A DNA stretch of 64,000 nucleotides, from assembly GCA_963719165.1 (NCBI GenBank), contig CAVRAV010000001.1, positions 1,637,215 through 1,701,214 on the forward strand. Reading direction: 5' to 3'. The stretch comes from an uncultured Actinomycetes bacterium. Lineage in GTDB: Bacteria > Actinomycetota > UBA4738 > HRBIN12. The translations under genes and the position numbers were made by a program. Under the pieces are notes generated by a model that made no database searches, was not told the origin of the DNA, and saw only the letters and a list, made by a program, of their open reading frames with translations. Of this stretch, positions 6,890 through 56,434 are shown piece by piece; within the stretch, counting starts at the first letter, position 1; each line of letters begins with the position of its first letter.

Positions 6890-7793
6890 GTGCACCGGAT
6901 ACTGGTTGGTACCAGGGACGGGCTCCAGACGATCGGCGACCGAGGTCCCGTTGGGCCTCATCCAACTCGCCGGTCGGTCCGTGACTGCCGTCGTCCGAGA
7001 CGGTCCCGAGCTCTGGGCGATCGTGGATCGATCCGAGGTCTGGCACGCACCCGAGGCCGGCTGGCGCCTGGTGGCCACGCTGCAGGGCTACCAAGCGACG
7101 TGCATCGCCATGACCGACGCGATCCATGTCGGCTCGTCCAACGCACGACTGTTCCGACTCGCCGGGGAAACGCTCGAGCCCGTGGTCGCGTTCGACGACG
7201 CGGAAGGCCGCTCCGAGTGGTACACACCCTGGGGCGGACCGCCCGCCACTCGCTCCCTGTCTGAGTGGGGCGACGACGTCTATGTCAACGTCCACGTCGG
7301 GGGGATCCTTCACACCGGAGACCAGGGGCCTACGTGGAACCCCACGATCGAGATCGACGCCGACGTCCACCAAGTCGCAACCGCGGAGGGCTTCGTCCTG
7401 GCCGCCTGCGCCGGCGGGCTCGCGACGAGCCTGGACCACGGCGCAACCTGGACGATGCGGAGCGAGGGGCTCGATGCTCCGTACTCGCGCGCGGTGGTCG
7501 TCTGCGGCGACACGCTCCTCATGTCTGCCTCGAACGGCCCGCGTGGTGGTCGCGCCGCCGTGTACCGGGCCGATATCTCCGCCGGTGCGTTCGAACGCTG
7601 CACGGCCGGGCTCCCTGGATGGTTCGACGACAACATCGACACCTATCACCTGGATGCGCTGAACGACGGATCGTTCGCGGCGTTCGGCACCTCCGACGGA
7701 CGCATCTTCGGTTCGGAAGACGCCGGATCGACCTGGCAGGAGATGGCCTCCGATCTCGCCACGATCCAGCACGTCCTGGTGCTGCCCGACTGA
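6890..7793 (+). CDS. BNR/Asp-box or Ycf48-like beta-propeller protein, apparently frameshifted near 6950
   Basis: Family-typical N-terminus MHRILVGTRDGLQTIGDRG sits in frame 2 (track ORF 6890..7264); the rest (EVPLGLIQLAGRSV...HTGDQGPTW...HGATW...DAGSTW) is in the frame of track ORF 6636..7793. Confidence 0.55.
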
Positions 7794-7833
7794 CTCAAGA
7801 CCCCACCCGATACACGAGCCCGGTGAACAGGAG

Positions 7834-8598
7834 TCAGTTCGCCCGCAGCACGTCGAGGAACGCCGCCTCGGTGTCGGGAGACGGGCTGGCGCCGAGCTCC
7901 GAGGCGAGCGTCTCGCGGAGACGGTCGTAGGTCGCGAGCGCCTCGGCGTTGTTGCCGGCCTCGACGTGCGCCCGCATGAGCGTCACGTACGCGCGCTCCC
8001 GGAACGGTTCGAGCGCGATGATGCGCTCCGCGTCCCCCGCCGCGCCGGTCAGGTCGCCCTGCCTGATCGCGATCTCGGCTCTGCACGACAACGCCCGCAC
8101 CTGGATCGTTCGAAGCTGCGTCCGCTGCCGATGCACCCACTCCCCCTCGGCGCCCTCGAGGAACGGACGTCGCGCGATCGCGTTCGCGACGAGCGCCGCC
8201 CCGTTCGCCGCGGCGAGGTCGCCCGCCCGCAGCGCCGCCTCCGCGTCGTGCGCCGCGGCCGCGGCGGCTTCGACGTCGATCCATGCGTCGGGCGGCAGGC
8301 GAAGCTGGTAGCAACCGAACGCATGCTCGATCGTCGCCTCGGCTCCGCTCTGCGCGAGCACGCCGCGCAACTTGCTCACGATCGCGCGCAGGGCCGTGGC
8401 CCACGCTTGGGGCGGGGTTCCGTCCCACACCACGTCGGCGATGTGCTCGGTCGACAGCGCGTCGCGGCGTTCCGACGCCAGCAGCGCGAAGGCGAGCCGG
8501 CCCTGCCCGCCGGGGAACCGGCTCTCGGCCACGAGGACGTCGCCGCGCTCGATCGCGACGTTGCCGGCGAGGTAGATCCGCAGCTGTGGCTCGTCCAT
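7834..8598 (-). CDS. SARP (AfsR/DnrI/RedD)-family transcriptional regulator
   Basis: ATG at 8598 (MDEPQLRIYLAGNVAIERGDV) gives the OmpR-type winged helix followed by a bacterial transcriptional activation domain; track ORF 7834..8781 overextends 5'. Confidence 0.8.
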   Translation of the reverse strand: MDEPQLRIYLAGNVAIERGDVLVAESRFPGGQGRLAFALLASERRDALSTEHIADVVWDGTPPQAWATALRAIVSKLRGVLAQSGAEATIEHAFGCYQLRLPPDAWIDVEAAAAAAHDAEAALRAGDLAAANGAALVANAIARRPFLEGAEGEWVHRQRTQLRTIQVRALSCRAEIAIRQGDLTGAAGDAERIIALEPFRERAYVTLMRAHVEAGNNAEALATYDRLRETLASELGASPSPDTEAAFLDVLRAN

Positions 8599-8685
8599 GC
8601 CATCCCCTCGGGGCCCGCCGGGCGAGGCGGCGCCAACGTTGCGCCAACGTCGCTTGCCTAGTATCCGCCCCGAGGAGGTGATCGC

Positions 8686-8838
8686 ATGATCAAGGAAGTC
8701 ACCTGCGAGTGCGGCTTCTACGCGCGCGGGATCGAGGACGACCTCGTCGTCGCCGTCCAGGCGCACGGGGCGGCCAAGCACGGCATGGACGTCACCCGTG
8801 AGCAGGTCATCGCCCAGCTCAAACCGGTCGGCGCCTGA
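8686..8838 (+). CDS. DUF1059-family small protein (50 aa)
   Basis: Not in the ORF track (<60 aa); RBS gaggagg at 8672-8678; MIKEVTCECGFYARGIEDDLVVAVQAHGAAKHGMDVTREQVIAQLKPVGA matches the DUF1059 pattern. Confidence 0.6.
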   Translation: MIKEVTCECGFYARGIEDDLVVAVQAHGAAKHGMDVTREQVIAQLKPVGA

Positions 8839-9319: not shown

Positions 9320-9471
9320 CGGTTCCCCTTCCCCTCGGATCCTCCAAACCTACCGCGATTCGGCGGAGGACGCGGAGGGGGTGGCCCGAGCGAGAAATGG
9401 ATGAACGGGATAGTCTCCCTCCCAAGGGACCGTGCCCGCAGGAGTGCCCGCGGGAGAGAAGGAGGAACGGG

Positions 9472-10227
9472 ATGAAGGTACGGGTTGTTCTTGGCCTGTG
9501 CGCACTGCTGGCGGTCGCCATCTGGCCGGCGACGGCAGGCGCGGATCCATTCGTGGGACCACCCCTGTGTGCGAGTGCGGGGACGGCGTTGTGGGGCTCC
9601 CACCACGGCAACCTCACCGTGAACGGCGACGCGTACGTGCCGGCCGGCAAGGCCCTGCGGGTCAGCGCCAACCTGAGGCTGAGTCCCGGGGCCTGCCTGG
9701 ATGCGTTCACGCTCGGCACCGTGCACGTGCACGGCAACATCCGCGTCGGCGAGGGCGCGGTGCTCGCGCTCGGGTGCACGCCCGACTCGATCGGGCCGGT
9801 TCCGCCCTGCGGCACGACCACGACGAACGACACCGTGGGCGGGAACATCGTCGCCCAGGACGCGCTCACGATGTACCTGGACGGCAACACGATCCACGGC
9901 AACGTGATCTCGCGCAACGGTGGTCCGGGCCTGCACGGCGAGTTCCTCAACTTCCCGATCAAGGACAACACCATCGAGGGTGACTTGATCGTCCGAGGTT
10001 GGAAGGGCGGCTGGGCCGGCGCCATCCGCAACGATGTCGGCGGAGACCTGGTCTGGACCAAGAACAAGAGCGCCACCGACCCGGACTCGAACGAGGTGCA
10101 GACGAATTGGATCGCCGGCGACCTGCGCTGCTACGGCAACTCGCCCCGCGCGCAGGTGAACCCGAACGACGGCGGCCAGCCCAACGCCGTCGGCGGTCAC
10201 AAGCTCGGGCAGTGCGCCGGACTCTGA
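9472..10227 (+). CDS. Secreted hypothetical protein, probable beta-helix-like repeats
   Basis: ATG at 9472 after gagaaggaggaa; signal peptide MKVRVVLGLCALLAVAIWPATAGA; repeated GN/GD motifs. Confidence 0.6.
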   Translation: MKVRVVLGLCALLAVAIWPATAGADPFVGPPLCASAGTALWGSHHGNLTVNGDAYVPAGKALRVSANLRLSPGACLDAFTLGTVHVHGNIRVGEGAVLALGCTPDSIGPVPPCGTTTTNDTVGGNIVAQDALTMYLDGNTIHGNVISRNGGPGLHGEFLNFPIKDNTIEGDLIVRGWKGGWAGAIRNDVGGDLVWTKNKSATDPDSNEVQTNWIAGDLRCYGNSPRAQVNPNDGGQPNAVGGHKLGQCAGL

Positions 10228-12380: not shown

Positions 12381-12936
12381 GTGAAGCGACTGAAGATCGA
12401 CGAGGCGTTCGTGCTGCGATGGGCCGAGCGGTACGCGGAGGACATCTCCGACGCCGAGGGGGCGTTCGAGGAGCGGCTGTTCTCCACCGGGTCCGCGACC
12501 ATACGAGCGCGCGGGTACCTCACGCGCGGAGAGTTCATGACGATCGCGATCTGGAAGTCCCCGCGCGCTCGGTCACGGCTCGAGCGGAACGACGCGAGAA
12601 GCGTTCGCGCGGTGTCGTCGCTGGCGTTCGCCCCCGATGCCGTGGAACGGGCGTCGGTGCTGACGGGCCTCTCCGGCGTCGGCGAGCCGATCGCGTCGGC
12701 CATCCTCGCGGTCTGGGATCCCCTGCGCTTCACGGTGTTCGACTGGCGCGCGACCGAGACCTTGCGGGCCGCGGGTTACTTCCGATCGAGTGGAGGCGGC
12801 GTGAGCCTCGGGCTGTACCTCGCGGTGTGTCGCGAGCTCGCGGATCGGGCTCGATCTGCCCGACACGACCCTTCCCAAGCTGCGGCTCCTGGACCGGGCC
12901 CTGTGGGCGTACAGCGCCCGAGGATCCTCGCGGTAG
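12381..12936 (+). CDS. Hypothetical protein with an apparent +1 frameshift near 12860
   Basis: GTG at 12381 after aggagggg; reads in the 12237 frame to ...LAVCRELADR, then continues naturally in another frame (GLDLPDTTLPKLRLLDRALWAYSARGSSR*) to TAG at about 12936. Confidence 0.4.
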
Positions 12937-14383: not shown

Positions 14384-14403
14384 ACGGCCGACCGAACGGA
14401 GCC

Positions 14404-16599
14404 TCAGACGCGCGAGAGGCCGAGTCCGTCGATCACCACCGGCTGGCCCGCCGAATGAACGCGGATCGCGACCGCGCCCGCATGCAGCGCGCTCCACGAC
14501 ACCACCCTCACGAGCCGGCGCCCGATCACATCCGCCCGTGTGGAGACCCTACGCAGCAGCACGCCGTTCCACAGAACGTCCACGGTCCCGCCACCAGGAC
14601 GTTCCTGGACGAGCAGTGAGATCGCCCGCGCCTTGACGGCCCGCAGACGCAGCGTGGCCCCGCGGCGTCTCGATCGGGTCGCCGTACCCTGGTAGAGACG
14701 TCCGGCGGACGACTCCGTCCACGCCCCCCTGGATCCTCGGAGCGACCGGTCGTCAACCGGCGCTGCCGCGCATGCCCGCGCGCTGTTCGAGGCCCCGCTC
14801 GCGTTGAAGGCATCGATCAAGAAGCAGGTGGTGTCACCCGGAGCGAACGGCGATCCGATGGCCGTGCCGGTGATCGTGGTGCGGTGCCAACGGTGTGGGA
14901 ACCCCTTGGTGAACGGCGCCGAACGCCACCGCACCCCGTATCCGGTGGCTCCCTCGGAGGGCGACCACGTGACATCGTAGGGACCGAGCCGGAAGCTCGC
15001 CGCGGACGAAGTGACGATCGGCTTCTGCGGTTCGGCGATCTGTGTCGGGCCTACCGTGAAGTCGGACGAGGTGCACCAACCCTGGGCCGGAGTGATGACG
15101 CAGATCGGACCCGTCGCGGCGCCCTGAGGCACCGTCGCATCGATGTGGGAGTCCGACACGTCCTGGAACGAGGCGGGCACGCCGCCGAACTTTACCGAGG
15201 TCGCCCCGGTCAGCCCGCTCCCCGTGATGCTGACCGGGGAGTCGACGGGAGCCTGGACCGGGGTGAAGGATGAGATCTCCGGGTAGACGGACGTGCACGT
15301 GGATGCGGCGCCAGTGTCCTGCCCGACACCACCCCAACCGCCGTACGAGAGGTGCTGATTCGTGGCGCCATCCCACCACATCCACTGCTGCGCGCTGCAA
15401 TGTCGCAGGCGATAGACGTTGTCCGTCCAGCGGTTCCCGGCGCTCGTGCCCACCCCGTGATTCACCACGCCGTTCGATGCGGTCGCTTTGTTTACCACGT
15501 CGATCGCGTTGCGAACGGCGAGGTTGTCCCGATTCGGATAGTTGGCCCCTTGGTCGCACCTCGGAGCGGGGGCGGGGACGGGGTCATGCCTGTTTCCGAA
15601 CATACGGATACCCCAATTGGGCGAGGTCGCGGAGGGTACCGTGACGACGTTGTCCCGAACCGTGACCCCGTTCGAGTCGTACAGATCGATGGCGGCCACG
15701 AGACCTCCGTCCACGGCGTTGTCGTGGATGTCGCCGCCGGTCGGACCGCCGCAGCTCACCTCCACGCGGATCCCTTCCTGTGGGAGCGCGGCGTTCACCG
15801 CGTTCGCCGTCTGCTCGATCGTGTTGTTCGAGACGTCGAATCCGCGCGTGTCGATGTCGAGCCAGAGCTGCGCTCCCCCCGCATTGCCTCGGAACGTGGT
15901 GCCCCGGACGATGAGGTCGGTGTCGGTGTTGAACTTCGCCCCTCCGGCGAACCCCGGCGACCACCCGGTCGTGGTCGGGTTGTCGTAGACGAACGAATCC
16001 TCGACCGTCAGCGCATCGACTCGGACGGCGCGCAGCCCGAAGTCACCGGTGGGATTCGACACGGCATCGTAGGGGGTCGAGCCGTTGCGCTCGATCGTGG
16101 AGCCCGACACCGTGATGTCCTCGGCGGTGTTGATCGCGATCCCCACCTGCCCCGCCCCGGTGGCCGTGATGCGGTTGAGGGTCCAGCCGCTCACGACGCC
16201 GCCGCCCGCGGCGCCGCTCCCGATCTGCACGTCGGCCTTTCGGGCTCCGTCGAGCACGAGGTCCTGCAAGGTGACGTCGTTTCGGCCGTCCGAGCCCTTG
16301 AAGCAGTAGACGGCCGCCGCGCACTCGATCACGGTCGGTTCCGACCCCACGCCGATCACGGTGATCCCCGATGGGGGGACGAGGGGAGCCCCGATCGCGT
16401 AGATGCCCCCCTCGAGGCAGGCAACGCCTCCGTCGGTGCCCGCCTCAGCGCCAACTGCGGCAAAGAACATCCCGAGGTCGGCGCCGGCGGACGCGGTCTC
16501 CGTGCACGCCGGCCCGGCATCGGCCGGTCCTGCCCCGCCGATCAACAGGGCCATGCTGAGGCAGGACAGGGCGAAGGAAGCGGCCAACCTCATCTTCAT
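14404..16599 (-). CDS. Large secreted protein: right-handed beta-helix (pectate-lyase-like) + IPT/TIG + fibronectin-III-like domains
   Basis: Signal peptide MKMRLAASFALSCLSMALLIGGAGPADA; beta-helix repeats (NNTIEQ, IHDNAVDGG, VRDNVVTV); IPT-like PVSITGSGLTGATSVKFGGVPASF. Confidence 0.75.
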   Translation of the reverse strand: MKMRLAASFALSCLSMALLIGGAGPADAGPACTETASAGADLGMFFAAVGAEAGTDGGVACLEGGIYAIGAPLVPPSGITVIGVGSEPTVIECAAAVYCFKGSDGRNDVTLQDLVLDGARKADVQIGSGAAGGGVVSGWTLNRITATGAGQVGIAINTAEDITVSGSTIERNGSTPYDAVSNPTGDFGLRAVRVDALTVEDSFVYDNPTTTGWSPGFAGGAKFNTDTDLIVRGTTFRGNAGGAQLWLDIDTRGFDVSNNTIEQTANAVNAALPQEGIRVEVSCGGPTGGDIHDNAVDGGLVAAIDLYDSNGVTVRDNVVTVPSATSPNWGIRMFGNRHDPVPAPAPRCDQGANYPNRDNLAVRNAIDVVNKATASNGVVNHGVGTSAGNRWTDNVYRLRHCSAQQWMWWDGATNQHLSYGGWGGVGQDTGAASTCTSVYPEISSFTPVQAPVDSPVSITGSGLTGATSVKFGGVPASFQDVSDSHIDATVPQGAATGPICVITPAQGWCTSSDFTVGPTQIAEPQKPIVTSSAASFRLGPYDVTWSPSEGATGYGVRWRSAPFTKGFPHRWHRTTITGTAIGSPFAPGDTTCFLIDAFNASGASNSARACAAAPVDDRSLRGSRGAWTESSAGRLYQGTATRSRRRGATLRLRAVKARAISLLVQERPGGGTVDVLWNGVLLRRVSTRADVIGRRLVRVVSWSALHAGAVAIRVHSAGQPVVIDGLGLSRV

Positions 16600-16656
16600 G
16601 CTGCCTCCCGGCGTCGCGCGTCGACCCGAGTGTGCCTTGGGATGCGCCCTCTTGCA

Positions 16657-17241
16657 ATGGCCATCCGGCTACAGTTGGCGATCGTGGAGACCTGGGTCGT
16701 GCTCCTGCGCGGGATCAACGTGGGCGGCAAGAACGTGATCCCCATGGCGTCGCTGCGCGACGAGTTCGCCGCGATGGGCTTCCGCGACCCACAGACCCAC
16801 ATCCAGAGCGGGAACGTGCTCGTGGAGAGCCCGAGGAAGCGGAGCAAGGCGGCCGTGGCGCGCATCGAGCGCCACCTGTCCGAGGCGTTCGGGTACGGGG
16901 CGCGCGTGGTCGTGCGCGACACCCCCGAGATGGCGGCGATCGTGGCGGCGATGCCTGCCGACTGGGACCCCGACGATCGCACGGTTCGCCACAACGTGAT
17001 CTTCCTCACCGACGGCGTCGCCCCCGACGACCTGATCGGCGGGCTCGAGGTCGATCCCGCCATCGAGTCGATCGCGGCGAGCCCCCACGCCGTCTATTGG
17101 TCCGCGCCGATGAGCACCCTCACGCGCACCGCCATGGTGAAGCTGAGCGCGCACCCCCGCTACCCCGAGGTGACGATCCGCAACGCCCGCGTGACCCTCA
17201 AGCTCTTCGACCTGATGCAGGCTCGAGACGAACGGGGTTGA
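16657..17241 (+). CDS. DUF1697-family protein
   Basis: ATG at 16657 in the frame of track ORF 15352..17241; VVLLRGINVGGKNVIPMASLR is the DUF1697 N-terminal signature. Confidence 0.75.
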   Translation: MAIRLQLAIVETWVVLLRGINVGGKNVIPMASLRDEFAAMGFRDPQTHIQSGNVLVESPRKRSKAAVARIERHLSEAFGYGARVVVRDTPEMAAIVAAMPADWDPDDRTVRHNVIFLTDGVAPDDLIGGLEVDPAIESIAASPHAVYWSAPMSTLTRTAMVKLSAHPRYPEVTIRNARVTLKLFDLMQARDERG

Positions 17242-20155: not shown

Positions 20156-21100
20156 GTGGATGCCGTGCTCGAATGCGTGGGTCTGCGCAAGACGTTCGGA
20201 GCGCGCGTCGCCGTGGACGACGTGAGCTTCGCGATCGCCCCCGGGGAGACCTACGGACTCCTCGGCCCCAACGGGGCGGGCAAGACCACCACGATCTCCA
20301 TGGTGTGCGGGCTGCTCGGGCGTGACGGGGGGCGCGTAACCGTCCAGGGTGAGGCGCTCGACCCCGGCACGGTCAAGGTCAAGGCCGCGATCGGCTTCGT
20401 ACCGCAGGAGATCGCGATCTACCCCGACCTCAGCGCCCGCGAGAACCTGCGGTTCTTCGGCAAGCTCTACGGGCTCTCGGGGGCCGACCTGGACGCACGG
20501 ATCGAGCGACTCCTGGACACGATCGGCCTGGCGGATCGTGGGGATGAGCGCACGGACGCCTTCTCGGGCGGCATGAAGCGGCGGCTCAACATCGCGTTGG
20601 GGATGCTGAACGATCCGGCGCTACTCGTGCTCGACGAGCCCACCGCGGGTGTGGATCCGCAGAGTCGCAACGCCATCCTCGGCACGGTGGAATCGCTCGC
20701 ATCCACGGGCATGGCCGTGCTCTACACGACGCACTACATGGAGGAGGCCGAGCGGCTCTGCGATCGCGTCGGCATCCTCGACGAAGGAACGATGAAGGCG
20801 GAGGGCACGCGCAGGGAGTTGATCTCGTTGGTGGGTGAACAGGACCGGCTCCGGGTCGAGGTCCGCGGCGACCTGCCCGCCGCGGCGAGCGCGACCCTGG
20901 CCGTGCCGGGGGTGACGGAGGCCGTCGCCCGGGAGGGCGGGCTCGACCTGATGGCGCGCGACGTGCGCGCGTCGCTCGCGGAGATCGTGCTCGCGATCGA
21001 CGGCACGGGCGCCGGCATCCTTTCGATGGAGGTCCACGAGCCCAACCTGGAGGCGGTCTTCCTGCACCTCACCGGCAAAGCGCTCCGCGACGAGGAGTAG
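20156..21100 (+). CDS. ABC transporter ATP-binding protein
   Basis: Walker A GPNGAGKTT, ABC signature FSGGMKRRLNIA, Walker B LLVLDEPTAGVD. Confidence 0.9.
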   Translation: MDAVLECVGLRKTFGARVAVDDVSFAIAPGETYGLLGPNGAGKTTTISMVCGLLGRDGGRVTVQGEALDPGTVKVKAAIGFVPQEIAIYPDLSARENLRFFGKLYGLSGADLDARIERLLDTIGLADRGDERTDAFSGGMKRRLNIALGMLNDPALLVLDEPTAGVDPQSRNAILGTVESLASTGMAVLYTTHYMEEAERLCDRVGILDEGTMKAEGTRRELISLVGEQDRLRVEVRGDLPAAASATLAVPGVTEAVAREGGLDLMARDVRASLAEIVLAIDGTGAGILSMEVHEPNLEAVFLHLTGKALRDEE

Positions 21101-21103
21101 GCG

Positions 21104-22258
21104 TTGCGCAACGCCTGGACCATCGCGCGCAAGGACCTGAAGCGCCGCGTGCGCGACCGCACGGCCATCCTGGTGGCGCTCGTGCTTCCGTTCGCGCTGG
21201 CGGGGATCTTCAGCCTGACGTTGAGCGGCGTCGACAGCGGCGCGTTCGAGGTGACCTACGCGGTCGTCGGCTCCGACGGGGGCGCCCTCCCCGGGGACTT
21301 CACCCAGGAACTCAAGGCCCTGGGGTTCGTGACGTTGCGCGACGCCGGCTCGCGAGCCGCGGCTGAGCGCCTGGCCGAGGACGGCGACGTCGACGCTGCC
21401 ATCGTGTTCCCGCCCGGGTTCACCAACGACGTGCGCGCGGGTGACGGCGGCCGCATCGAGGTGCTGACCTCCCCCGACTCCAGCATCGGTTCGCTCGTCG
21501 CCGTGTCGCTCGCACGCTCGTTCGGCTCGAACCTGGACGCTGTTGGGCTCGCCGTCGCGGCGGTCGCCGGCCCGGGAGGGCGGAGCGACCCGGCGTTGGT
21601 CGCGCTGGCGCGGACCCTCCCTCCCGCCGCCACGATCCGGACGGCCACCGTCGAGGACCAGGTGGCGTCCCAGTCCACGTTCTTCTCGATCGGGATGGCC
21701 GTGTTCTTCCTGTTCTTCGCGGTGGAGTTCGGCGTGCGCGGTCTGCTGGAGGAGCGCGAACAGGGCACCCTCTCCCGGCTGCTGGTCGCGCCGATCGATC
21801 CGTCCTCGGTGATCGGCGGGAAGGCCCTGACGAGCTTCGCCCTGGGCCTCGTGAGCACCACGACGCTCGTGGTGGCGACCACCTGGTTGCTCGGCGCCGA
21901 GTGGGGAGCCCCGGGCGAGGTGGCGCTGCTCGTGGTCGCCGGCGTCCTCGCGGCGGTCGGCGTCACCGCCATGGTCGCCACGTTCGCGACCACCACCGCA
22001 CAGGCCGGTGCGTTCGTCTCGGTGGTCGCGGTGGTGGGGGGCTTGCTGGGCGGGACGTTCTTCCCGATCTCGCAGGCGGGCTGGCTCGGGACCCTCCGGT
22101 TCCTCTCGCCGCAGGGATGGCTCATGCGCGGCTTCCAGGAGGCTTCCTCGGGCGGTGGGATGCGCAACATCGCGGCGCCGCTCGCGGGCATCCTCGCGAT
22201 CGCGCTCGTCACCGGGGCCGTCGCCTGGGCGCGGGCCAAACGCATGGTGGCGGGATGA
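21104..22258 (+). CDS. ABC-2 family transporter permease
   Basis: N-terminal TM, large extracytoplasmic loop, then 5 TM helices; follows the ATPase by 3 nt. Confidence 0.8.
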   Translation: MRNAWTIARKDLKRRVRDRTAILVALVLPFALAGIFSLTLSGVDSGAFEVTYAVVGSDGGALPGDFTQELKALGFVTLRDAGSRAAAERLAEDGDVDAAIVFPPGFTNDVRAGDGGRIEVLTSPDSSIGSLVAVSLARSFGSNLDAVGLAVAAVAGPGGRSDPALVALARTLPPAATIRTATVEDQVASQSTFFSIGMAVFFLFFAVEFGVRGLLEEREQGTLSRLLVAPIDPSSVIGGKALTSFALGLVSTTTLVVATTWLLGAEWGAPGEVALLVVAGVLAAVGVTAMVATFATTTAQAGAFVSVVAVVGGLLGGTFFPISQAGWLGTLRFLSPQGWLMRGFQEASSGGGMRNIAAPLAGILAIALVTGAVAWARAKRMVAG

Positions 22259-23417
22259 AGGCGTTCGTGATCGCGGGCGCCAACCTGCGCCGGCTCCTGC
22301 GGGACCGCACGGGCGCGTTCTTCGTGCTCGTGTTCCCGTTCCTGATCATCCTCGCGCTCGGGGCGGCGTTCGGATCCGGCTTCACGCCCAAGCTCGGGGT
22401 GGTGGGCGGGATCGGGCGAGCTGGGGCAGGACCTGCGCAGCAGGATCGAGGCGACCGAAGGCCTGGACGTCCGGTCGTTCGCCGACGCCGACGCCCTTCG
22501 GCAGGCGGTCGCCCGCGGCGATGTCGAGGGCGGCCTCGTGATCCCCTCGGACTACGACGGCCGGATCCGTGCGGGCGGGACGGTGCCGCTCAGCTACGTG
22601 GCGCGCTCCGGGAGCGCCGGCCAGCGGCTCCAGGCCACGGTGAGCGCGGTGGTCGACGCACAGAGCAACGAGATCCGTGCCGCGAGGTTCGCGGTCTCCG
22701 AGGGGGCGGCCACGGGGTTCGACCAAGGCCTGCTGCGAGCGAGCGCGGCATCGACGGGTTTCTCGGGCGTGAGCGTTCACGAGCCGCATCGCGGGCGGGG
22801 TGAAAGTGGCGAGGCCGTTCGACACGGGCGCGGCACAGGAGCTCGTCTTGTTCATCTTCCTGACGTCGCTCTCTGCCTCGGCGATGTTGATCGAGACGCG
22901 CAGGCTCGGCTTGACGAGGCGGATGCTGGCCTCGCCCACGCCGGTGCGCACGATCCTGGCGGGCGAGACGCTCGGACGCTACGCGATCGCTCTCGTCCAG
23001 GGCACGCTGATCGTGGTGGGCACGCTGCTCGTCTTCCGCGTGGAGTGGGGCAACCCCCTCACGACGGGGCTGGTGGTCGTACTGTTCGCGCTCGCCGCGA
23101 CCGGAGCCGCCATGCTCATGGGATCGCTCCTTCGCAACGCCGCCCAGGCGGGAGCCGTCGGGGTGTTCCTCGGGCTGGTGCTGGCGGCCCTCGGAGGGTG
23201 CATGGTCCCCCTCGAGGTCTTCCCCCCGGCGATCTTCGCCATCGCGCATCTCACCCCGCACGCCTGGGCGATCCAGGCGCTGACCGACTCGATCGCCACG
23301 CACGCCTCGCCGGCGGACGTCGCGACCGACCTCGCGGTCCTGAGCGCCTACGCGCTCGTGCTCCTGAGCGTGGCCACGGTGGTGCTGCGCAGGACGATCA
23401 CCGACCCGGGCGGCTGA
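22255..23417 (+). pseudogene. Second ABC-2 permease, broken by two apparent frameshifts (~22415 and ~22780)
   Basis: One continuous permease read across three frames: MKAFVIAGANL...KLGVVGG (frame of 21901), GELGQDLRSRIEATEG...STGFSGVS (frame of 22538), ARPFDTGAAQELVLFIFL...TITDPGG (frame of 22800); ATGA overlap with the upstream permease. Confidence 0.7.
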
Positions 23418-35380: not shown

Positions 35381-35557
35381 GCGGGCGGGCAGTGGCCCGT
35401 TCAGCAGCGGCGCGTCCTTCACGGTTCGATCACCTCCACAGCCTAGAGGGGCGCGGTCCCGGCCGGTGCGCGTCAAGACTGGGGCGCGGTCACGGCTGGG
35501 ACCTCGTGAGACTCAAGGAATCGACCCGCCGCGGTCGACAACCCTTCGGAAAGAGAG

Positions 35558-39957: not shown

Positions 39958-40278
39958 TCAGCACGCACGCCGAAGGCAGAACCCTCGGTAGGGCCGGCCC
40001 TGGATGCACGCATGGAACCGCCGCGAGCATCCGCCGCACCGGTACAGGTTCCCGCCGCACGCGCACCCCGTCTTGCTTATGGGTTCGCACCCCACCTTGC
40101 AGGGGTCGGGATGGGGTCGTGCGCGGGCCCGCGTGGCGCCGAGGGTGCTCACGGCCGCGTAGGCCCCGAAGGCCGCGAGCGAGGCACGCGAGACGAACGA
40201 CCGCCGCGTGAGCTCGCGTGTCCGCTCGCGCGGCGATCCGGACCGCTCGACGACCGGTGGCCCCGCTTGCTCAGCCAC
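39958..40278 (-). CDS. Small Cys-rich exported protein with a twin-arginine signal (TRRSFVSRASLAAFGAYAA)
   Basis: 9 Cys in a ~52-aa mature region; start overlaps the stop of the upstream TlpA-like gene. Confidence 0.55.
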   Translation of the reverse strand: MAEQAGPPVVERSGSPRERTRELTRRSFVSRASLAAFGAYAAVSTLGATRARARPHPDPCKVGCEPISKTGCACGGNLYRCGGCSRRFHACIQGRPYRGFCLRRAC

Positions 40279-40844
40279 CGGCGGCTCCCACGATCCGCAC
40301 GCCGTCGCCCTCGGCCACGAGATCCGCGACCTCGTCCACGGTCTGGACTGGGCCGCGGGAGACCACGGCGCCGCCCTCGTCGATCACGAACACGGTGGGC
40401 GTGATGTCCACGCCGAAGGCGTCGGAGACGTCGGTGCCGTGCTCGCTCACCAGCCGAACACGCTCGGCCGCGTGCCACCCGGAGGGATGGGCCTGGAGAT
40501 CGCCCCGGCTCACCACGACCACCGTGGGGAGCCGCCGCGCCGCTGCTTCGGACACGACGCCGGGCACGAGCGTTGCGCACGCGGCACATGCGGGGTCCGC
40601 GAAGAGCACGAGGTGCCGCAGGCCTGCCGTCTGGCGCGCATCGAACACGCTCGCCGTCGGCGGCGTCGGCGCGGAATCCGGGAGCTCGGCTGCCCGGCGC
40701 GATGCCCCCGGAGAGATGACGCACCGCGGCCTCGTCCGCGGCCCGGAGCTCGCCGATGGTCCGTGCGGCTCCCGAAAGCGCCAGCAAGAGCCACGCCACC
40801 GCCGCCGCGAGCACCCCGACCAGGACCCATGGCAGCCAGCTCAC
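40271..40844 (-). CDS. Membrane-anchored TlpA-like thiol:disulfide oxidoreductase, apparent frameshift near 40650
   Basis: GTG at 40844 (GTGA overlap with upstream stop); TM anchor then APGFRADAADGERV in one frame and FDARQTAGLRHLVLFADPACAAC (CxxC) in the frame of track ORF 40271..40648. Confidence 0.6.
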
Positions 40845-41898: not shown

Positions 41899-41981
41899 CC
41901 CTCAGGGCGACCAGGTCGACCGGACGGCGGCGGCGGCGGCCAGGCCCAGGGCGAGGCCGAGGTACACGCCTGATCCGCCGC

Positions 41982-42662: not shown

Positions 42663-43246
42663 AGGCAGCCCGCCTCGTGCGAACAGGTCACCTGGTCGAC
42701 GGCGGCCGAACAGTGGCAGTTCACGCATTCGATCTCGCAGGGCAGCACGCACGTGACGAGCCGGCATTGGATCGGCGTGACCGCGGCGATCTGGGTGTTG
42801 CACTGGCCGTAGCGGAAGACCACGCAGCACGTCTTGAAGTTCCTGCAGTCGTCGCTGCCACAGTGGCAGCCGCCGGGGCACGCCTTCCCGGGATCGATGC
42901 TGCAATCGAGGTAATAGCGGACGTTCGTGGTGCCGCACAGGCCGCTGCCCCCGTAGCTGCATTGCCACCACCCGCCGACGAACGTGTTCTGGGGGCAGCC
43001 GAAGTTGGAGCCGCCGGGAAGCGTGCAGCAGAAGGCGGTGTAGCCAGCGCAGCACCGGGAACCCGGCGGACAGCGGCTGCAGGATGCGCGCACGAGGTCC
43101 TCCGCCGCCACTGGGCGCGTCGCATACCGCACGGGCGCCACCGCCAGGGCGGCAGCCGCGACCGTCGCGCGCTCCGCACGTGAGCGCTCGGGCCCGCGCG
43201 CCACCCACGAGGTGGCAGCCTTCATCGCCCGCTCCGCCACGCTCAC
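42659..43246 (-). CDS. Cysteine-rich exported protein (25 Cys in 195 aa; CC doublets, CxxC, CHC motifs)
   Basis: Cys codons cannot arise from GC-frame artefacts; N-terminal Ala-rich signal-like region; start and stop both overlap neighbours (ATGA at 43243-43246, GTGA at 42659-42662). Confidence 0.65.
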   Translation of the reverse strand: MSVAERAMKAATSWVARGPERSRAERATVAAAALAVAPVRYATRPVAAEDLVRASCSRCPPGSRCCAGYTAFCCTLPGGSNFGCPQNTFVGGWWQCSYGGSGLCGTTNVRYYLDCSIDPGKACPGGCHCGSDDCRNFKTCCVVFRYGQCNTQIAAVTPIQCRLVTCVLPCEIECVNCHCSAAVDQVTCSHEAGCL

Positions 43247-43902
43247 GGGCCCCCGGCCTCCGGTCGATCGCCTCGATCGCCTCGATCGCCTCGATCATTC
43301 GGGCTCGCCCCGTCGGTATCGGGCCACAAGCTCGCATGCCCCTGGCCCACGCCCGACATCGCCAACGCCGCGTCGGCGCGCCGATGTCGGTCCGGATCGA
43401 AGAGCTCCTGCTCGTGATGGGTGGGCGGCGTCCACGCACGGAACGCCGTCGGGGCCTCAGCCACCACGACCGTGACGAGCCATCCCGCCACACAGAGTCC
43501 GACGGCCGCGGGCGCCGCGACCCACCCGACGGCCCTCACGATCGACGGCAACGCGGTGACGCCGATCAGCGCGGCCGCCACGCCCGAGGCGGCGGCGGTC
43601 AGGTTCAAGCCGACATGCACCCAGCTTGGGGGGACGTCGTGTTCGCCGGCGCACCCGCATGAGGCCGCTTGCGGCCGCGCCAGCTTCAGGTAGGCCACGA
43701 ACGCGGCGAACCCGGTGTACAGCGCCGCGAGGAGGAAGGCCACGCCGGGAACCGGACGCGCCAGGGCGGCGACGCCCACCGCCATCTCGACGACACCGAG
43801 CGCCCGAACCCCCCAAAGGCGGGCCGGAAGGCCTGCAGCGTAGAGCGCTTGGGAGGTGGCGTTCGGGCGCACCGTCTTCACGGCACCGCCGATGACGAGC
43901 AA
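43243..43902 (-). CDS. DoxX/MauE-like integral membrane protein with an SCGCAG motif and a C-terminal DRG repeat
   Basis: 4 TM helices; CGC motif between TM2 and TM3 as in MauE-type proteins; tail DRGDRGDRGDR encoded by a 9-bp tandem repeat. Confidence 0.55.
   Translation of the reverse strand: MLVIGGAVKTVRPNATSQALYAAGLPARLWGVRALGVVEMAVGVAALARPVPGVAFLLAALYTGFAAFVAYLKLARPQAASCGCAGEHDVPPSWVHVGLNLTAAASGVAAALIGVTALPSIVRAVGWVAAPAAVGLCVAGWLVTVVVAEAPTAFRAWTPPTHHEQELFDPDRHRRADAALAMSGVGQGHASLWPDTDGASPNDRGDRGDRGDRPEAGGP
43256..43292. repeat. 9-bp tandem repeat (gatcgcctc x ~4) inside a CDS
   Basis: Read directly: cgatcgcctcgatcgcctcgatcgcctcgatc. Confidence 0.6.
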
Positions 43903-43989
43903 GGCTGCCGCGAGGAGGAAGACGGGGGCGAGGCGGATGGGCTCGATGCCGCCGGAGCGTAGGGGAGCCCCGACCCATCGTCAATCGGG

Positions 43990-50349: not shown

Positions 50350-50368
50350 TCCCATCCCTTGAGGAAAG

Positions 50369-50845
50369 GTGCCTGGATTGAACGCATTGCAGTTGTTGAA
50401 GAGCGACCACGCCAAGGTCAAGGATCTGTTGAGCAAGCTCGATCGCACAACCGAACGCGGGGTGAAGACACGGGAGGGGCTGTTCGCCCGGTTTCGCTCG
50501 GAGATGTCGATCCACGAGCAGATCGAAGAGGAGATCTTCTATCCGGAGCTCAAGGAGCACGCCAAGTCCAAAGACATCGCGCTCGAGGGCTATGAAGAGC
50601 ATCACGTGGTGGACATGGTGATGTCGGAGTTGTCGGATCTCCCCTACGACGACGAGACGTGGGGCGCGAAATTCACGGTGATGAAGGAGAACATCGAGCA
50701 CCACGTCACGGAAGAGGAAGGGGAGATGTTCAAACGAGCGCGTCAGGTGCTGAGCCGACGCCAACTCGATGAGCTCGGCGAACGCATGGCAGAACGCAAA
50801 GCCGAGCTACGTCGAGCGAAGAAGCGCAACGTCAAGGAGTCGTGA
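50369..50845 (+). CDS. Hemerythrin HHE cation-binding domain protein
   Basis: LLKSDHAKVKDLL...HEQIEEEIFYPEL...HHVVDM...HHVTEEE are hemerythrin-like His/Glu motifs. Confidence 0.8.
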   Translation: MPGLNALQLLKSDHAKVKDLLSKLDRTTERGVKTREGLFARFRSEMSIHEQIEEEIFYPELKEHAKSKDIALEGYEEHHVVDMVMSELSDLPYDDETWGAKFTVMKENIEHHVTEEEGEMFKRARQVLSRRQLDELGERMAERKAELRRAKKRNVKES

Positions 50846-50873
50846 GAACAATCAGAGGGAAGGAGCAGTGAAC

Positions 50874-50966
50874 ATGCTGGCAGCCATCGGTTTGGGCATC
50901 ATCGGCACCATCATCGTGATCGCGCTCGTGGTTGCGGTCGTCATTTGGCTGATGCGTCGCGCGTGA
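50874..50966 (+). CDS. Possible 30-aa hydrophobic micro-protein (MLAAIGLGIIGTIIVIALVVAVVIWLMRRA)
   Basis: ATG preceded by gggaaggag; single TM; not in the track. Confidence 0.35.
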   Translation: MLAAIGLGIIGTIIVIALVVAVVIWLMRRA

Positions 50967-51385: not shown

Positions 51386-51781
51386 ATGGACGGACGTAAC
51401 GAAATGACCGAGGACCGGGGAGCCCCGGCCCACCGAGCGCAACGGCTGAAGGGCCGCTGGTTGCGACGAGCGGCCGTGGCGGCCGCCCTGGGAGTGGGTG
51501 TCGGAGCCATCGTCGGCTACGCGCTGGGGATCGCCGCGTTCGCGCGCGGATCGCGAGGCTTCTGGGCCGTGCTGATCGCCTGCCTCATCTTCTCCGTCCT
51601 CGTCGCGGTGCTCGTGGCCAGCTATTCATCTCTCGAGTCTCCCGACCCGTCTCAGGAGCCCTCGCAGGTCGACCGTCCGATCCGCGATCGCCCGGGCCTA
51701 ACGCGGAACCAAAGAGAAGCACCCGGTGGAACGGCGGACTCAGCGACCGACCCGCGGGGGTCTCCACGGACGTCGGACTGA
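51386..51781 (+). CDS. Small membrane protein, hypothetical
   Basis: Two TM helices (AAVAAALGVGVGAIVGYALGIAAF, FWAVLIACLIFSVLVAVLVA); ends 3 nt before the RsbW-like gene. Confidence 0.4.
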   Translation: MDGRNEMTEDRGAPAHRAQRLKGRWLRRAAVAAALGVGVGAIVGYALGIAAFARGSRGFWAVLIACLIFSVLVAVLVASYSSLESPDPSQEPSQVDRPIRDRPGLTRNQREAPGGTADSATDPRGSPRTSD

Positions 51782-51783
51782 AC

Positions 51784-52182
51784 GTGCCCGTCACTCCGGC
51801 CGCGGCCAGGCTCGCACGCCGCCAGCTCCAAGAACCGCTTGACGCGCTGCTCGGTCCCGCGCGAGGGGCCGACGTCAGACTTGCCATCACGGAGCTGATC
51901 GCGAACGTGGTGCGACATGGGGGGGCGGCTCCCGGACGATCGGATGCAACTCAACGTCAAAGCGACGTCGTCCACGCTGACGGTGCGGTTGCGCCAGCCC
52001 ACGGGCGCTCGAGGCGATGGCGACGGGACGCGGCGATGGCGCTACCCGAGGGCGGTTGGGGACTGATGATCGTGGAGGAACTCACGGACCGCTGGGGCAT
52101 CATCCCGGGGCCACCCGGGCGAGGTGTGGTTCGAACTCGATATCGGCTGGATGTCCGGTTGCCCGTCAGCCGCCGCGCTTGA
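51784..52182 (+). pseudogene. RsbW-like anti-sigma factor/serine kinase (HATPase), with two compensating frameshifts (~51900 in a G7 run, and ~52010)
   Basis: LAITELIANVVRHGG then the family-typical middle (RLPDDRMQLNVKATSSTLTVRLRQPTGARGDGDG) in the +1 frame, then back to LPEGGWGLMIVEELTDRWGI. Confidence 0.55.
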
Positions 52183-52743: not shown

Positions 52744-52828
52744 CCGGCGGGAGCTCGAAGTCGGACGGAATTCCCGCCATGCCGGCCCTCGATCGCTTCG
52801 CGACCGGGGGCCGGCGGCGTGTCGGGAC

Positions 52829-53877
52829 ATGACGATGGCTGCGCCCGCGGCCACGCGCCGCCTGCATCGGGTCGATGGCGACTCCCCGGGGATCTCCCGG
52901 CACCGAGCGGGGCGAGGGTTCGCCTACCGCCATCCCTCCGGTCGTCCCGTTCGAGACACCGCCACGCTGGAGCGCATCAAAGGCCTCGCCATCCCCCCGG
53001 CGTGGGAGGACGTGTGGATCTGTCCGGACCCCGCAGGCCATCTCCAGGCGTCGGGCGTCGACGAGGCGGGACGCCGACAACCGCTCTATCACCCCCGCTG
53101 GCGGGAGCGACGCGATGGAGAGAAGTTCCGGCGGGTGGAGGACTTCGCGACGCGGCTCCCCGCCCTCAGGACCTCGGTCGCGGAGGATCTCGGGCATTCG
53201 TGGTTTCCCGCGTGCCAGGATCTTGGCCTGCGCCGTTCGACTGCTGGATCAGGCATTCTTCAGGATCGGATCCGAAGCCTATGCGCGACGCAACGGATCG
53301 TTCGGCCTCGCGACGCTCAAGCGATCGCACGTGACCGTTGGCACGCGGTCGTGTGAGCTTCGACTATGCCGCGAAGAGCGGCAAGCGCAGGCATCAGGAG
53401 GTCCGCGATCCCGAGATCCTTCCCCTCATCCGAAGCCTGCTTCGGCGCAAGGGAGGGGGACGCGAACTGCTCGCGTTCAAGGAGGCGGGGGTGTGGCGAG
53501 ACGTCCGGTCGACGGACATCAATCACTACCTCAAGGATCTCGCCGGCGACGAGTACACGGCGAAGGACTTCCGCACGTGGCACGCAACGGTTCTCGCCGC
53601 GATCGAGCTCGCGACGGTTCGCGATGCGGAGGGAGCCGCTGCGCGCAAGCGAGAGATGGCCGCCGCCGTGCGCACGGTCGCGGAGCAGCTCGGCAACACG
53701 CCGGCGGTGTGTCGAGCCTCCTACATCGACCCCCGCGTCTTCAACCGCTTCGCCGAGGGATGCACCATCGCCACGGACCTCCCGGATGTGGACGTGAGCA
53801 CCGACGACCCGGCGATGCGTGGGCGTGTCGAGCGAGCCGTCCTGCAGCTGCTGGGTGGAGCGCCGCATAGGGGCTGA
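52829..53877 (+). pseudogene. Bacterial DNA topoisomerase IB (poxvirus-type), broken by two apparent frameshifts (~53210 and ~53340)
   Basis: N-terminal (RHRAGRGFAYRHPSGRPVRD...RWRERRDGEKFRRVEDF), middle (VRLLDQAFFRIGSEAYARRNGSFGLATLKRSHVTV) and C-terminal catalytic (FRTWHATV...CRASYIDPRV, active-site Tyr) segments lie in three different frames. Confidence 0.75.
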
Positions 53878-53899
53878 GCGTCAATCCGGCCGACCCGGA

Positions 53900-54982
53900 T
53901 CAGAGGTGGTCCGAGGGCTCGAGCGGGGTCGACCCCTCCTCCTCGATCTGCTCCTCGGCCAGGCCGTCGCCTTCTCGCACCCGTTCCCGCATCCAGACCT
54001 CGACGATGACCACCTTGATGGCGGCGGCGACCGGAAGCGCCAGCAGGGCTCCGGCGAAGCCGGCGAGGCTGCCGCCCACGAGGGTTGCGATGATCACGGC
54101 GGCCGGCGACAGGTTGATCACGTTCTTCATCACCTTCGGCACGACGAGGTAGTTCTCGAATTGTTGATACGCCACGAAGAACACCGCGGCGAGGAGGCCC
54201 TTCACGGGCGAGGCGACGAACGCCACCAGGATCGCGGGCGCGGCACCGAGGTAGGAGCCCACAGCGGGGATGAGATCGGCGAAGCCCGCCCAGATCGCGA
54301 GCGGCACCGCGAACGGGACCCCGATGGCGAGCATGGCGACGAGCGTGGCGATGCCGCACAGGACGGACGTGATGAAGTTCCCCACCACGTACCCGCCGAT
54401 CCGATCGACGGTGGAATCGATCACGCGACGAGCTTGCGCACGATGGTGCGGGCGCACGAGGATGGTCGCCGTCCGTCGCATGCTGGGCAGGGAGACCATG
54501 AAGTAGATCGCCAGCACCGTGACCGTGACCGCCTCGAACACGAGGCTGCCGACCCGGCCCGCTACCCCGAGGATCGTCCCGAACGAACGGCCCGCGGTCT
54601 GGGGGAGATGCTCGATGAACCCACGAACCTGATCCGTCACGTGATTCTCACGCATGAGGTTGCCCACCCAGTCGTTCCGCGCTTCGAGCGAACCGAGGTA
54701 CCGCGGGATATCCGCCCCGAGCCCTCCTGCCTGCGCGACGAGCGGCGGCACGATGAACCAGGCGAACGCAAGCGCCAGGAGCGCGATCACCGCCAAGAGC
54801 AACGCGACCGCCCAACCGCGAGCGAGACCGCGACCGGTCAGCCAACCGATCACCGGCTCGGCGCCCAAGGCGATCACGATCGCGATGAGGATGAGGATGA
54901 GGATGTTGAGCACCGAGCGCGCCACCGCGAACGCGCCGACCGTCAGCACGACGATGGCCGTCGCCTTGGCCCAGTAGCGCAT
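53900..54982 (-). CDS. AI-2E family transporter (PerM/UPF0118)
   Basis: ATG at 54982 (MRYWAKATAIVVL...); 8 TM helices; the track merges it with the upstream gene (53900..56479). Confidence 0.8.
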   Translation of the reverse strand: MRYWAKATAIVVLTVGAFAVARSVLNILILILIAIVIALGAEPVIGWLTGRGLARGWAVALLLAVIALLALAFAWFIVPPLVAQAGGLGADIPRYLGSLEARNDWVGNLMRENHVTDQVRGFIEHLPQTAGRSFGTILGVAGRVGSLVFEAVTVTVLAIYFMVSLPSMRRTATILVRPHHRAQARRVIDSTVDRIGGYVVGNFITSVLCGIATLVAMLAIGVPFAVPLAIWAGFADLIPAVGSYLGAAPAILVAFVASPVKGLLAAVFFVAYQQFENYLVVPKVMKNVINLSPAAVIIATLVGGSLAGFAGALLALPVAAAIKVVIVEVWMRERVREGDGLAEEQIEEEGSTPLEPSDHL

Positions 54983-55068
54983 CGGGGGCCATCGTCGATC
55001 TCCAGGGGCCACGTCGCCCGCAGGTCGATCTCGCGCGGCGTTCGGCGTGAGGTCCGACACCGCCGACT

Positions 55069-56434
55069 TCATCCGGTCAGCTCCCGCAGGGCCGTTCCCA
55101 CCGCTTCGGATCGCGTGGGGTACGCATGGATGAGCGTGGAGGCCTCGCGCGCCGGCGTCCGCGATCGCATGAGGGCGCAGACCTCGTGGATCATGACGCC
55201 CGCGTTGGGCATGACGATGTGTCCGCCCACGATCTCGCCGGTTTCGCGAGAGGCGATGAGCTTGACGATGCCGAACGGATCCCCGTCGATCATCGAGCGC
55301 TCGACGTCTTCGGCGCGAACGGTCGCGGCGGCGATCTCGAGGCGCTTGATCGCGCGCCACCTCCTCGGTGAGACCCACGCTCGCGACCTCCGGTGAGCAG
55401 AACGTCACGCGCGGCACGACGCGGTAGTCCTTTTCGACGGGTTCGCCCAGGATGTCGTGAGCCACGATTTGGGCTTCATACGTCGCGACGTGCGTGAAGA
55501 GGAGGTCTCCGGTCGCATCCCCGACGGCCCAGATGTTGGGTTGGGTCGTTCGGAGTGTTGCGTCGAGGATGGGCTTTCCCTCGGGATCGAGCTCCACGCC
55601 GGCCGAGTCGAGGTCCTGCCCGTCGAACACGGGCCGGCGACCCGCCGCGACGAGCACCTCCTGGGTTCGGACCTCGCCCCCATCCCAGCTGAGCGTCCAC
55701 TCGTTCTCGTGGCGCACGGCACCTTCGAGCCGGGTGTCAACAAGCACGTCGATCCCCTCGCGCTCGAGGACGGTTCGAGCCTCCGCCGCCGCGTCGGCGT
55801 CCTCGCTCGGCATGAATCGCTCCGCGGCCTCGAACATGCTCACGCTGGCTCCGAAACGCGCATAGATCTGCGCGAATTCCGTCCCGACCGCCCCCGTCCC
55901 GATGACGGCGAGTGAGGACGGCACCGCCGTGGGTGTCCACACGGCGTCCTTGTTGGTCCAGTAGGGCCCGTCTCCCAAACCCTTGATGTCGGGGACCTGC
56001 GCCTGCGTGCCGGTCGCGAGGATGATGCGATCGCAAGACAGGCGCGTCCCGTCCGCGAGCTCCACGGACGAGTCCCCGATGATCCGTGCCTCGGCCGGGA
56101 GCACCACGATGCCCGCCCGTTCGAACGGCGCGGCGCCTTCTCCCGACATCTCCTGGATCACGGAGCGAGCTCGTGCCTGCACCGCGGGAAGATCCACTTC
56201 GGCCGAGCATCCGCGCACCCCGAAGCGCTCCGCGTGCCGAGCTTCGAACGCGCGATGCGCTGCTCGGAGCATGACCTTGGTAGGGACGCACCCGTAGTGG
56301 TTGCACTCCCCCCCGAGCTGGCCACGCTCCGCGAGCCCCACGTTCATGCCCGCTTCGGCGAGGCGGAACGCGGTCTCGGACCCCGCAGCCCCACCCCCGA
56401 TGACGAACGCCTCGAAGTGCGCCGCAACGGTCAT
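55069..56434 (-). CDS. Pyridine nucleotide-disulfide oxidoreductase (dihydrolipoyl-dehydrogenase/mercuric-reductase-like), apparent frameshift near 55345
   Basis: ATG at 56434; FAD GGGAAG, redox-active GGECNHYGCVPTK, NAD site; the C-terminal dimerisation domain (AIKRLEIAAATVRAEDVERSMIDGDPFGIVKL...HAYPTRSE) is in the frame of track ORF 55069..55293. Confidence 0.7.

Follow-up and report, generated by a model that had tools for sequence, protein, structure and literature searches.

Several recognisable proteins encoded in this 64-kb window (the whole stretch of DNA that was analysed) begin in one reading frame and continue in another, which raises the question of whether the organism carries these breaks or the deposited assembly introduced them. 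The first-pass annotation listed ten such frame changes and ascribed them to assembly indel error rather than biology. All ten were recovered by codon-usage Viterbi segmentation and in three-frame views, with the proteins running on in another frame, and the sites were refined by alignment. An additional, eleventh break was identified at 52114. The window contains eleven single-base frame breaks in seven otherwise normal genes, a density of about one per 6 kb. These genes, and one intact gene to which the text returns, are as follows.

6890..7793, forward strand, BNR-like beta-propeller gene, +1 at about 6959
12381..12936, forward strand, gene of a 184-aa hypothetical protein, +1 at about 12847
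22255..23417, forward strand, second ABC-2 permease gene of an operon encoding an ATPase and two permeases, +1 at about 22408 and +1 at about 22779
40271..40844, reverse strand, TlpA/redoxin-like gene, +1 at 40651
51778..52147 (start approximate), forward strand, RsbW-like anti-sigma kinase gene, +1 at about 51930, -1 at about 52028 and +1 at 52114
52829..53877, forward strand, bacterial topoisomerase IB gene, +1 at about 53194 and +1 at about 53340
53900..55072, reverse strand, AI-2E family transporter gene, intact, with an orthologue of 390 aa and the same start in the relative described below
55072..56434, reverse strand, pyridine-nucleotide disulfide oxidoreductase gene, +1 at 55344

An extra base (+1) accounts for ten of the eleven breaks and a missing base (-1) for the remaining one (binomial P of about 0.006). 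The spacing is clustered, with four gaps of less than 400 nt (P of about 0.002), and three genes carry two or three breaks each. The Viterbi segmentation also showed that the coding signal is kept in every piece of the split genes. The other long genes had been described as intact, and no further within-gene frame change was detected in the window, the remaining same-strand switches being ordinary gene boundaries. An apparent frame switch at 48830 was rejected as a break of the window; the frameshift belongs to the relative and lies in a Haem_oxygenas_2 gene. Three stretches of weak coding signal (1.9-4.3 kb, 28.5-29.1 kb and 44.9-45.3 kb) gave no Pfam match, and Rfam and tRNA scans of the 64-kb window were empty.

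The main comparator is GCA_038249195.1, a short-read genome of a sister species with about 91% nucleotide identity to the window. Its genes are uninterrupted at all seven comparable sites, and the coding sequence that was aligned, about 33 kb, contains no frame-breaking gap that interrupts a coding frame of the window other than those seven. The relative carries a single frameshift of its own, the one in Haem_oxygenas_2 mentioned above. The BNR-like propeller has its N-terminus, VHRILVGTRDGLQTIGDRGP, in one frame and the remainder in the next, and the alignment gap places one extra nucleotide of the window at 6959. The frame of the hypothetical protein changes past ...LAVCRELAD and its C-terminus, LDLPDTTLPKLRLLDRALWAYSARGSSR*, lies in the +1 frame, with the alignment gap at 12847. 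The TlpA/redoxin-like gene occupies two frames, and Pfam Redoxin matches the C-terminal piece. In the disulfide oxidoreductase, the Pfam Pyr_redox_dim profile is matched at 1-24 in one frame and at 25-109 in the next, and 55344 is the sole gap in a 2.6 kb alignment with the relative. Removal of one base from the propeller, hypothetical, TlpA/redoxin-like and disulfide oxidoreductase genes gives proteins of 300, 184, 190 and 454 aa, respectively, equal in length to the intact orthologues of the relative.

Three of the seven comparable sites lie in the RsbW-like gene, the orthologue of which is one uninterrupted open reading frame in the relative, ending in FELDIR*. The window gene also shows an in-frame 3-nt difference and is without a stop codon at the orthologous position. 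An additional G at about 52146 may account for the loss of the stop; it abolishes the TGA present there in the relative and may represent a twelfth break. In a global alignment with the relative, differences at codon positions 1, 2 and 3 number 4, 7 and 26, respectively. A first dN/dS estimate of 4.6 for this gene resulted from the way in which BLAST had placed the gaps and was discarded as an artefact; the global alignment gives mainly third-position differences.

The remaining four of the eleven breaks are located in the ABC operon and the topoisomerase IB gene, both absent from GCA_038249195.1; for these breaks the comparison is with the listed homologues, all of which are single, uninterrupted proteins. 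The permease is split into three pieces, with Pfam ABC2_membrane_3 matched at 43-124 and 170-345 on different frames. Its homologue profile is covered at 3-56, 55-186 and 175-387 over three frames with zero residues lost, and each of the 120 homologues listed is uninterrupted (365-401 aa). Topoisomerase IB shows Top1B_N_bact in the first piece and Topoisom_I at 39-84 in the second and 87-200 in the third. Its homologue profile is covered at 2-119, 115-164 and 162-340 in three frames, again with zero residues lost, and the 120 homologues listed are likewise single proteins, of 331-381 aa.

Absence of the ABC operon and topoisomerase IB from the relative marks them as dispensable, and the decay of dispensable genes would match the position of these four breaks. 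Genuine, very recent frameshifts are a rival explanation, by which a strain or subpopulation would be pseudogenising an accessory ABC exporter, topoisomerase IB, an anti-sigma kinase (one of several) and a redoxin. This explanation is unlikely. It is favoured by the clustering of the breaks, with two or three in each of three genes, by the lack of a link to homopolymers, which differs from classic platform errors, by the missing stop codon of the RsbW-like gene and by the occurrence of a frameshift in the short-read relative itself. The clustered spacing, the location of four breaks in two genes that the relative lacks, and the 3-nt difference and missing stop in the RsbW-like gene also count against an artefact. 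Genuine decay is opposed by the state of the genes around the breaks. No nonsense mutations or in-frame stops were present in the repaired frames, and no truncations, insertions of IS elements or relaxed selection were found to accompany the breaks. The repaired genes have dN/dS values of 0.16-0.34, inside the range of 0.03-0.41 obtained for intact neighbours, as under normal purifying selection. The RsbW-like gene contains three indels within 200 nt with no non-synonymous excess. Pseudogene-rich genomes, such as those of Mycobacterium leprae, Sodalis and recent host-restricted pathogens, also contain many frameshifted genes, some with multiple lesions, but the window differs from them in its lack of nonsense mutations, truncations and IS elements, its normal dN/dS and its insertion bias.

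A direct comparison within the strain was obtained from Logan contig L085 (run ERR11718635), which is 99.91% identical to window positions 40302-42590, with one mismatch and one gap. This gap coincides exactly with the extra base that had been predicted at 40651, and L085 has the TlpA/redoxin-like gene as one open reading frame. A second contig of the same run (3087 nt) has zero gaps relative to the window. This same-strain allele test reached one site (40651) of the eleven. The breaks exist and are specific to the sequence of the window, and one of them does not recur in this independent assembly of the strain. The intact allele in this 99.9% identical assembly argues against genuine frameshifts: at the single testable site the lesion is not shared within the strain, and in this respect too the window differs from pseudogene-rich genomes. 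ERR11718635 may come from a different sample, in which case L085 may represent an intact allele of a sister strain. The other ten breaks are inferred to behave like the one at 40651.

Further look-ups in sequence collections returned no additional alleles. Among the intact neighbours, the 98-aa zinc-finger protein, the 48-aa protein, the DUF7712 protein, the decarboxylase and the sigma factor had no record outside the source, and the AI-2E transporter had no match in the collection in a look-up limited to the exact sequence. Ten repaired full-length proteins gave 0 exact matches in searches for which the junction residue was guessed and the Logan contigs were just 2-3 kb long. Pattern scans of JGI metagenomes that allowed both alleles at 12847 also gave 0 matches.

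The direction of the breaks provides another line of evidence. Bacterial mutation is characterised by a deletion bias and a repeat-slippage spectrum, as reportedly found by Mira, Ochman and Moran (2001) and in mutation-accumulation studies. The 10:1 insertion bias of the window opposes this spectrum and thus argues against genuine frameshifts. The extra bases would be real if the strain or a subpopulation had recently gone through a burst of single-base insertions outside repeats, for example owing to a mutator polymerase or defective repair; we regard such a burst as quite improbable. If it had occurred, dispensable genes would be knocked out faster than substitutions accumulate, and the intact allele of the Logan contig would belong to a co-occurring non-mutator lineage.

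The common +1 direction (10/11) is also the sole support for programmed +1 ribosomal frameshifting or phase-variable switching, which is so improbable as to be practically negligible. Both prfB-type programmed +1 frameshifting and slipped-strand phase variation involve a +1 change of frame inside a gene, as in the window, but the window has no conserved shift site, repeat tract or conservation among orthologues. The sites have no motif, slippery sequence or simple repeat in common, the shifts are not present in the sister-species orthologues or in any homologue retrieved, and that at 40651 is not in the near-identical contig L085.

Frameshifts were also counted in 80 loci with the same ABC operon, as a control for sequencing technology. 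They were found in 4 of 19 loci from MFD MAGs and in 0 of 61 others (Fisher P of about 0.0025), and all five events were +1. Several more single-base insertions are present in one of the MFD loci (L005), where another locus (L006) has intact open reading frames of 301 and 499 aa. Insertions in the MFD control include GGG[T]CTG, CAG[C]GGG and TCA[G]CCG. That unrelated MFD MAGs show this same +1 signature and none of the other genomes in the 80-locus set does is a further argument against genuine frameshifts. The MFD MAGs are Nanopore-only genomes assembled with Flye and polished in one round with Medaka (PMC12313526). According to PMC9262707 and PMC12313526, polishing is needed to clear long-read assemblies of indels. 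The window itself is most likely from a long-read-only metagenome-assembled genome, with Nanopore as the inferred platform.

Nanopore errors of the textbook kind concern the length of homopolymers, and the first-pass annotation had attributed the breaks to such runs. This attribution was not borne out. The window contains 41 homopolymers of at least 6 nt, several of them within long intact open reading frames, and just one is near a shift. At 40651, 55344, 6959 and 51930 the extra base is unlike both neighbours. Homopolymer-length miscalls of the kind known from 454, Ion Torrent or older Nanopore data are accordingly very improbable as the explanation, and the events of the MFD control show the same pattern. 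In their favour, a G7 run (at about 51919) adjoins one shift, and short runs are extended at 12847 (GG to GGG) and 52114 (CC to CCC). The earlier placement of the first RsbW-like shift in the G7 run is doubtful, because dropping the T at 51930 gives RHGGAAPDD, which fits the RHGGVAPDE of the relative better than does shortening of the run. GATC, a candidate methylation motif, was considered as a mark of error sites and rejected, since its association was not significant (P of about 0.09, with GATC present at a frequency of 10.8 per kb).

The frame breaks are best explained as errors in the consensus sequence of the deposited assembly, almost all being spurious insertions of one base. We consider this highly probable; the organism itself probably carries intact copies of the affected genes. 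The original reading of assembly indel error rather than biology is thus supported by the sister species (7/7 sites), the same-strain site at 40651, the selection estimates and the technology control. A plausible route would be assembly of Nanopore reads with Flye followed by a single Medaka polish, in which modest or uneven coverage could leave residual indels in the assembly. These would break open reading frames, and gene callers would then output fragments or fusions. The window resembles the residual indels of long-read-only (Nanopore or PacBio) assemblies in that single-base indels split conserved genes about once per 6 kb, do not occur in short-read relatives or in an independent assembly, and recur in MFD MAGs. 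It differs from them in that the inserted bases are mostly unlike their neighbours, which counts against an artefact when set beside the homopolymer-length errors of Nanopore data, and in that the breaks are clustered rather than even.

Roughly once every 6 kb, the gene calls of the window are broken up or fused, and the same probably holds for the entire 2.66-Mb contig. This affects annotation based on open reading frames, pseudogene counts, estimates of coding density and completeness, and protein clusters built from fragments. No affected gene should be counted as a pseudogene from the window sequence alone, the issue being one of annotation quality and not of biology. The breaks also provide a signature for quality control, namely an insertion bias with no tie to homopolymers, which is seen again in further Nanopore-only MAGs from the same public project. 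Filters designed around homopolymers would let such errors pass. The open reading frame at 53900..56479, which had been cited as a product of fusion, is a real case, as it joins the shifted disulfide reductase gene to the intact AI-2E transporter gene.

The window has a G+C content of about 70%, so that long spurious open reading frames occur in all frames. It was segmented by a Viterbi procedure with a codon-usage model trained on eleven unambiguous long open reading frames. The majority of the same-strand frame switches simply marked the boundary between two genes, a stop codon lying beside a start, and a subset lay inside recognisable proteins. The ten frame changes claimed in the first-pass annotation are each visible in three-frame views of the window, and an eleventh was identified at 52114 in the RsbW-like gene. 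The eleven single-base breaks (+1 in ten, -1 in one) split seven genes, which encode a BNR-like protein, a 184-aa hypothetical protein, an ABC-2 permease, a TlpA/redoxin-like protein, an RsbW-like protein, topoisomerase IB and a pyridine-nucleotide disulfide oxidoreductase (reductase). Spurious single-base insertions and one deletion in a long-read consensus are very probably the best explanation. The main alternative, and an improbable one, is that dispensable genes carry genuine frameshifts of very recent origin; the bias toward insertions argues against it.

Pfam domains are divided between different frames in the reductase (Pyr_redox_dim, positions 1-24 and 25-109), the permease (ABC2_membrane_3, 43-124 and 170-345) and topoisomerase IB (Topoisom_I, 39-84 and 87-200, the first piece matching Top1B_N_bact), and Redoxin matches the C-terminal part of the split TlpA-like gene. 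Among the matches listed, the repaired topoisomerase IB and permease have single-frame homologues of 331-381 aa (at most 63% identity) and 365-401 aa (at most 81% identity), respectively. A profile of 40 topoisomerase IB homologues is covered at 2-119, 115-164 and 162-340 by three successive frames of the window, and the permease profile is covered at 3-56, 55-186 and 175-387. Neither gene has lost residues, so the lesions are single-base events. The fused open reading frame 53900..56479 pointed out in the first-pass annotation is real and joins the shifted reductase to an AI-2E transporter.

Exact look-up of window proteins identified Logan contigs of run ERR11718635 and two contigs (JBBRWM010000011 and JBBRWM010000013) of a sister species, GCA_038249195.1, which is about 91% identical to the window. 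Its loci L002, L004 and L086 align to 1-361, 6.9-14.4 kb, 16.7-20.2 kb, 23.4-23.9 kb, 25.1-26.3 kb, 29.0-46.5 kb and 47.7-64 kb of the window, with about 82-93% identity in the main blocks. All alignment gaps were listed, and in the shared coding sequence only seven frame-breaking gaps fall where they disrupt a reading frame that is coding in the window.

Frame-breaking gaps in the alignment of the window with the sister species
6959, one extra base in the window (+1)
12847, one extra base (+1)
40653, one extra base (+1; the same base is placed at 40651 by the Logan contig L085)
51930, one extra base (+1)
52026, one base missing (-1)
52114, one extra base (+1)
55344, one extra base (+1)

Besides a gap at 48830, the remaining gaps of non-multiple-of-three length are intergenic or at gene ends. 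The comparison with orthologues that the first-pass annotation had proposed gave uninterrupted genes in the relative for the BNR-like protein (300 aa), the hypothetical protein (184 aa), the redoxin (190 aa), the reductase (454 aa) and the RsbW-like protein (a single open reading frame ending in FELDIR*). When any single base close to the break is deleted from the window sequence, the proteins regain exactly 300, 184, 190 and 454 aa. The relative carries a +1 frameshift of its own in a Haem_oxygenas_2 gene, an extra A (GGGA to GGGAA) at L004:1055-1070, equivalent to about 48830 in the window; the window copy is continuous, and the 287-aa gene call of the relative begins in the wrong frame. One such frameshift in an apparently short-read-built genome indicates a low background of these breaks in either data type.

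The RsbW-like gene contains three breaks, and its aberrant look at first was due to gap placement. In a global alignment to the relative, stretches between the breaks included, it differs at 4 first, 7 second and 26 third codon positions. The G7 run at which the first shift had been placed is doubtful as its site, as removal of T at 51930 fits the protein of the relative better than shortening of the run. At 52140-52150 the window has TGG where the relative has a TGA stop; judging from the sequence, an extra G at about 52146 (CTGGATG, which minus one G gives TGA) may be a twelfth spurious insertion that removed the stop.

The dN/dS values against the relative are 0.34 for the TlpA-like gene, 0.16 for the reductase, 0.25 for the 184-aa protein and 0.26 for the BNR-like gene, and they lie between 0.03 and 0.41 for the 34 neighbouring genes that are intact. 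The repaired frames are all free of stop codons, and the split genes show no signs of decay. Recent real frameshifts gain some support from the four breaks that lie in genes absent from the relative, whereas the absence of any other lesion speaks against them.

Same-strain evidence comes from two Logan contigs of run ERR11718635, whose sample may differ from the one assembled, and reaches one of the eleven sites (40651). L085 (2288 nt) differs from window 40302-42590 by one substitution and one gap, the latter being the extra base at 40651 (coding-strand context GGCG[A]GCG), and its TlpA-like gene is uninterrupted (...FRADAADGGVFDARQTAGLRHLVLFADP...). L001 (3087 nt) shows no gaps and seven substitutions. 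Together they give one indel in 5.4 kb, at the position of a frameshift that protein homology by itself had predicted; L085 also counts against real frameshifts. Six of the L001 substitutions fall within 23 nt (34552-34574) of a GNAT acetyltransferase gene, a cluster that resembles a strain polymorphism or a short tract of recombination.

A technology control was provided by 80 loci, which were retrieved by searching species-representative genomes with the ATPase of the ABC operon. The closest loci (76-83% protein identity) belong to metagenome-assembled genomes of the Microflora Danica (MFD) long-read project, which is described in PMC12313526 as Nanopore-only, with Flye assembly and one Medaka polishing round. 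Frame breaks were detected by tblastn chains of three operon proteins.

Frame breaks in the operon at 80 loci
MFD loci (n = 19): 4 with breaks (L006 with two events, L007, L025, L083), 15 without
All other loci (n = 61): 0 with breaks, 61 without
MFD breaks, all +1: L006:10094 and L006:11080; L007:11269; L025:~12376; L083:~11322

The difference is significant (Fisher P ~0.0025), and such platform dependence is a further point against real frameshifts. All five MFD events are +1, and in the three viewed at nucleotide level (L006, L007) the inserted base is unlike its neighbours. Another MFD locus, L005, carries at least four further single-base insertions in two genes (2866-6216), where the L006 open reading frames are intact (301 and 499 aa). 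The window therefore shows the error signature of the Nanopore-only assembly class, of which we infer it to be a member.

In the window, the extra base is unlike both neighbours at 6959, 40651, 51930 and 55344, and it extends a 2-base run at 12847 and 52114. The first-pass annotation had suspected homopolymer or indel error in the assembly. Indel error is supported by the intact orthologues of the relative, L085 and the MFD control. The homopolymer cause fails, since of 41 runs of at least 6 nt, many in intact long open reading frames, only the G7 at 51919 lies near a break. The breaks are clustered (four spacings below 400 nt, P ~0.002), which would suit recent frameshifts. Programmed frameshifting and phase variation were ruled out, as the breaks share no motif and are not conserved. 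Proximity of GATC to the breaks was not significant (P ~0.09). GATC occurs 691 times in the whole window (10.8 per kb), about four times the base-composition expectation.

Several window segments are missing from the relative (362-6871, 9398-10009, 14384-16676, 20189-23378, 23922-25132, 35464-37495, 50358-50893 and 52826-53890), so gene content is quite fluid between the two species. These include the whole ABC-2 operon, an FAD/BBE oxidase (of which the relative retains no more than a 49-aa BBE remnant), an M11-like peptidase that has an fn3 domain, a hemerythrin-like gene and topoisomerase IB. At 43262-43283, a gene junction, the 9-nt unit GATCGCCTC is repeated; the window is 18 nt longer than the relative here, in frame. 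A dense partner-switching cluster at 57400-64000, kept in the relative, contains several STAS (anti-anti-sigma) and HATPase_c_2 (anti-sigma kinase) genes, a SigB-like sigma factor, CsbD and a large DUF4118-GAF-SpoIIE phosphatase running past the window end. Also kept is a minus-strand run at 40270-43980 in which small membrane-protein genes accompany the TlpA/redoxin-like gene and one for a MauE-family protein; the run may be a disulfide-handling module.
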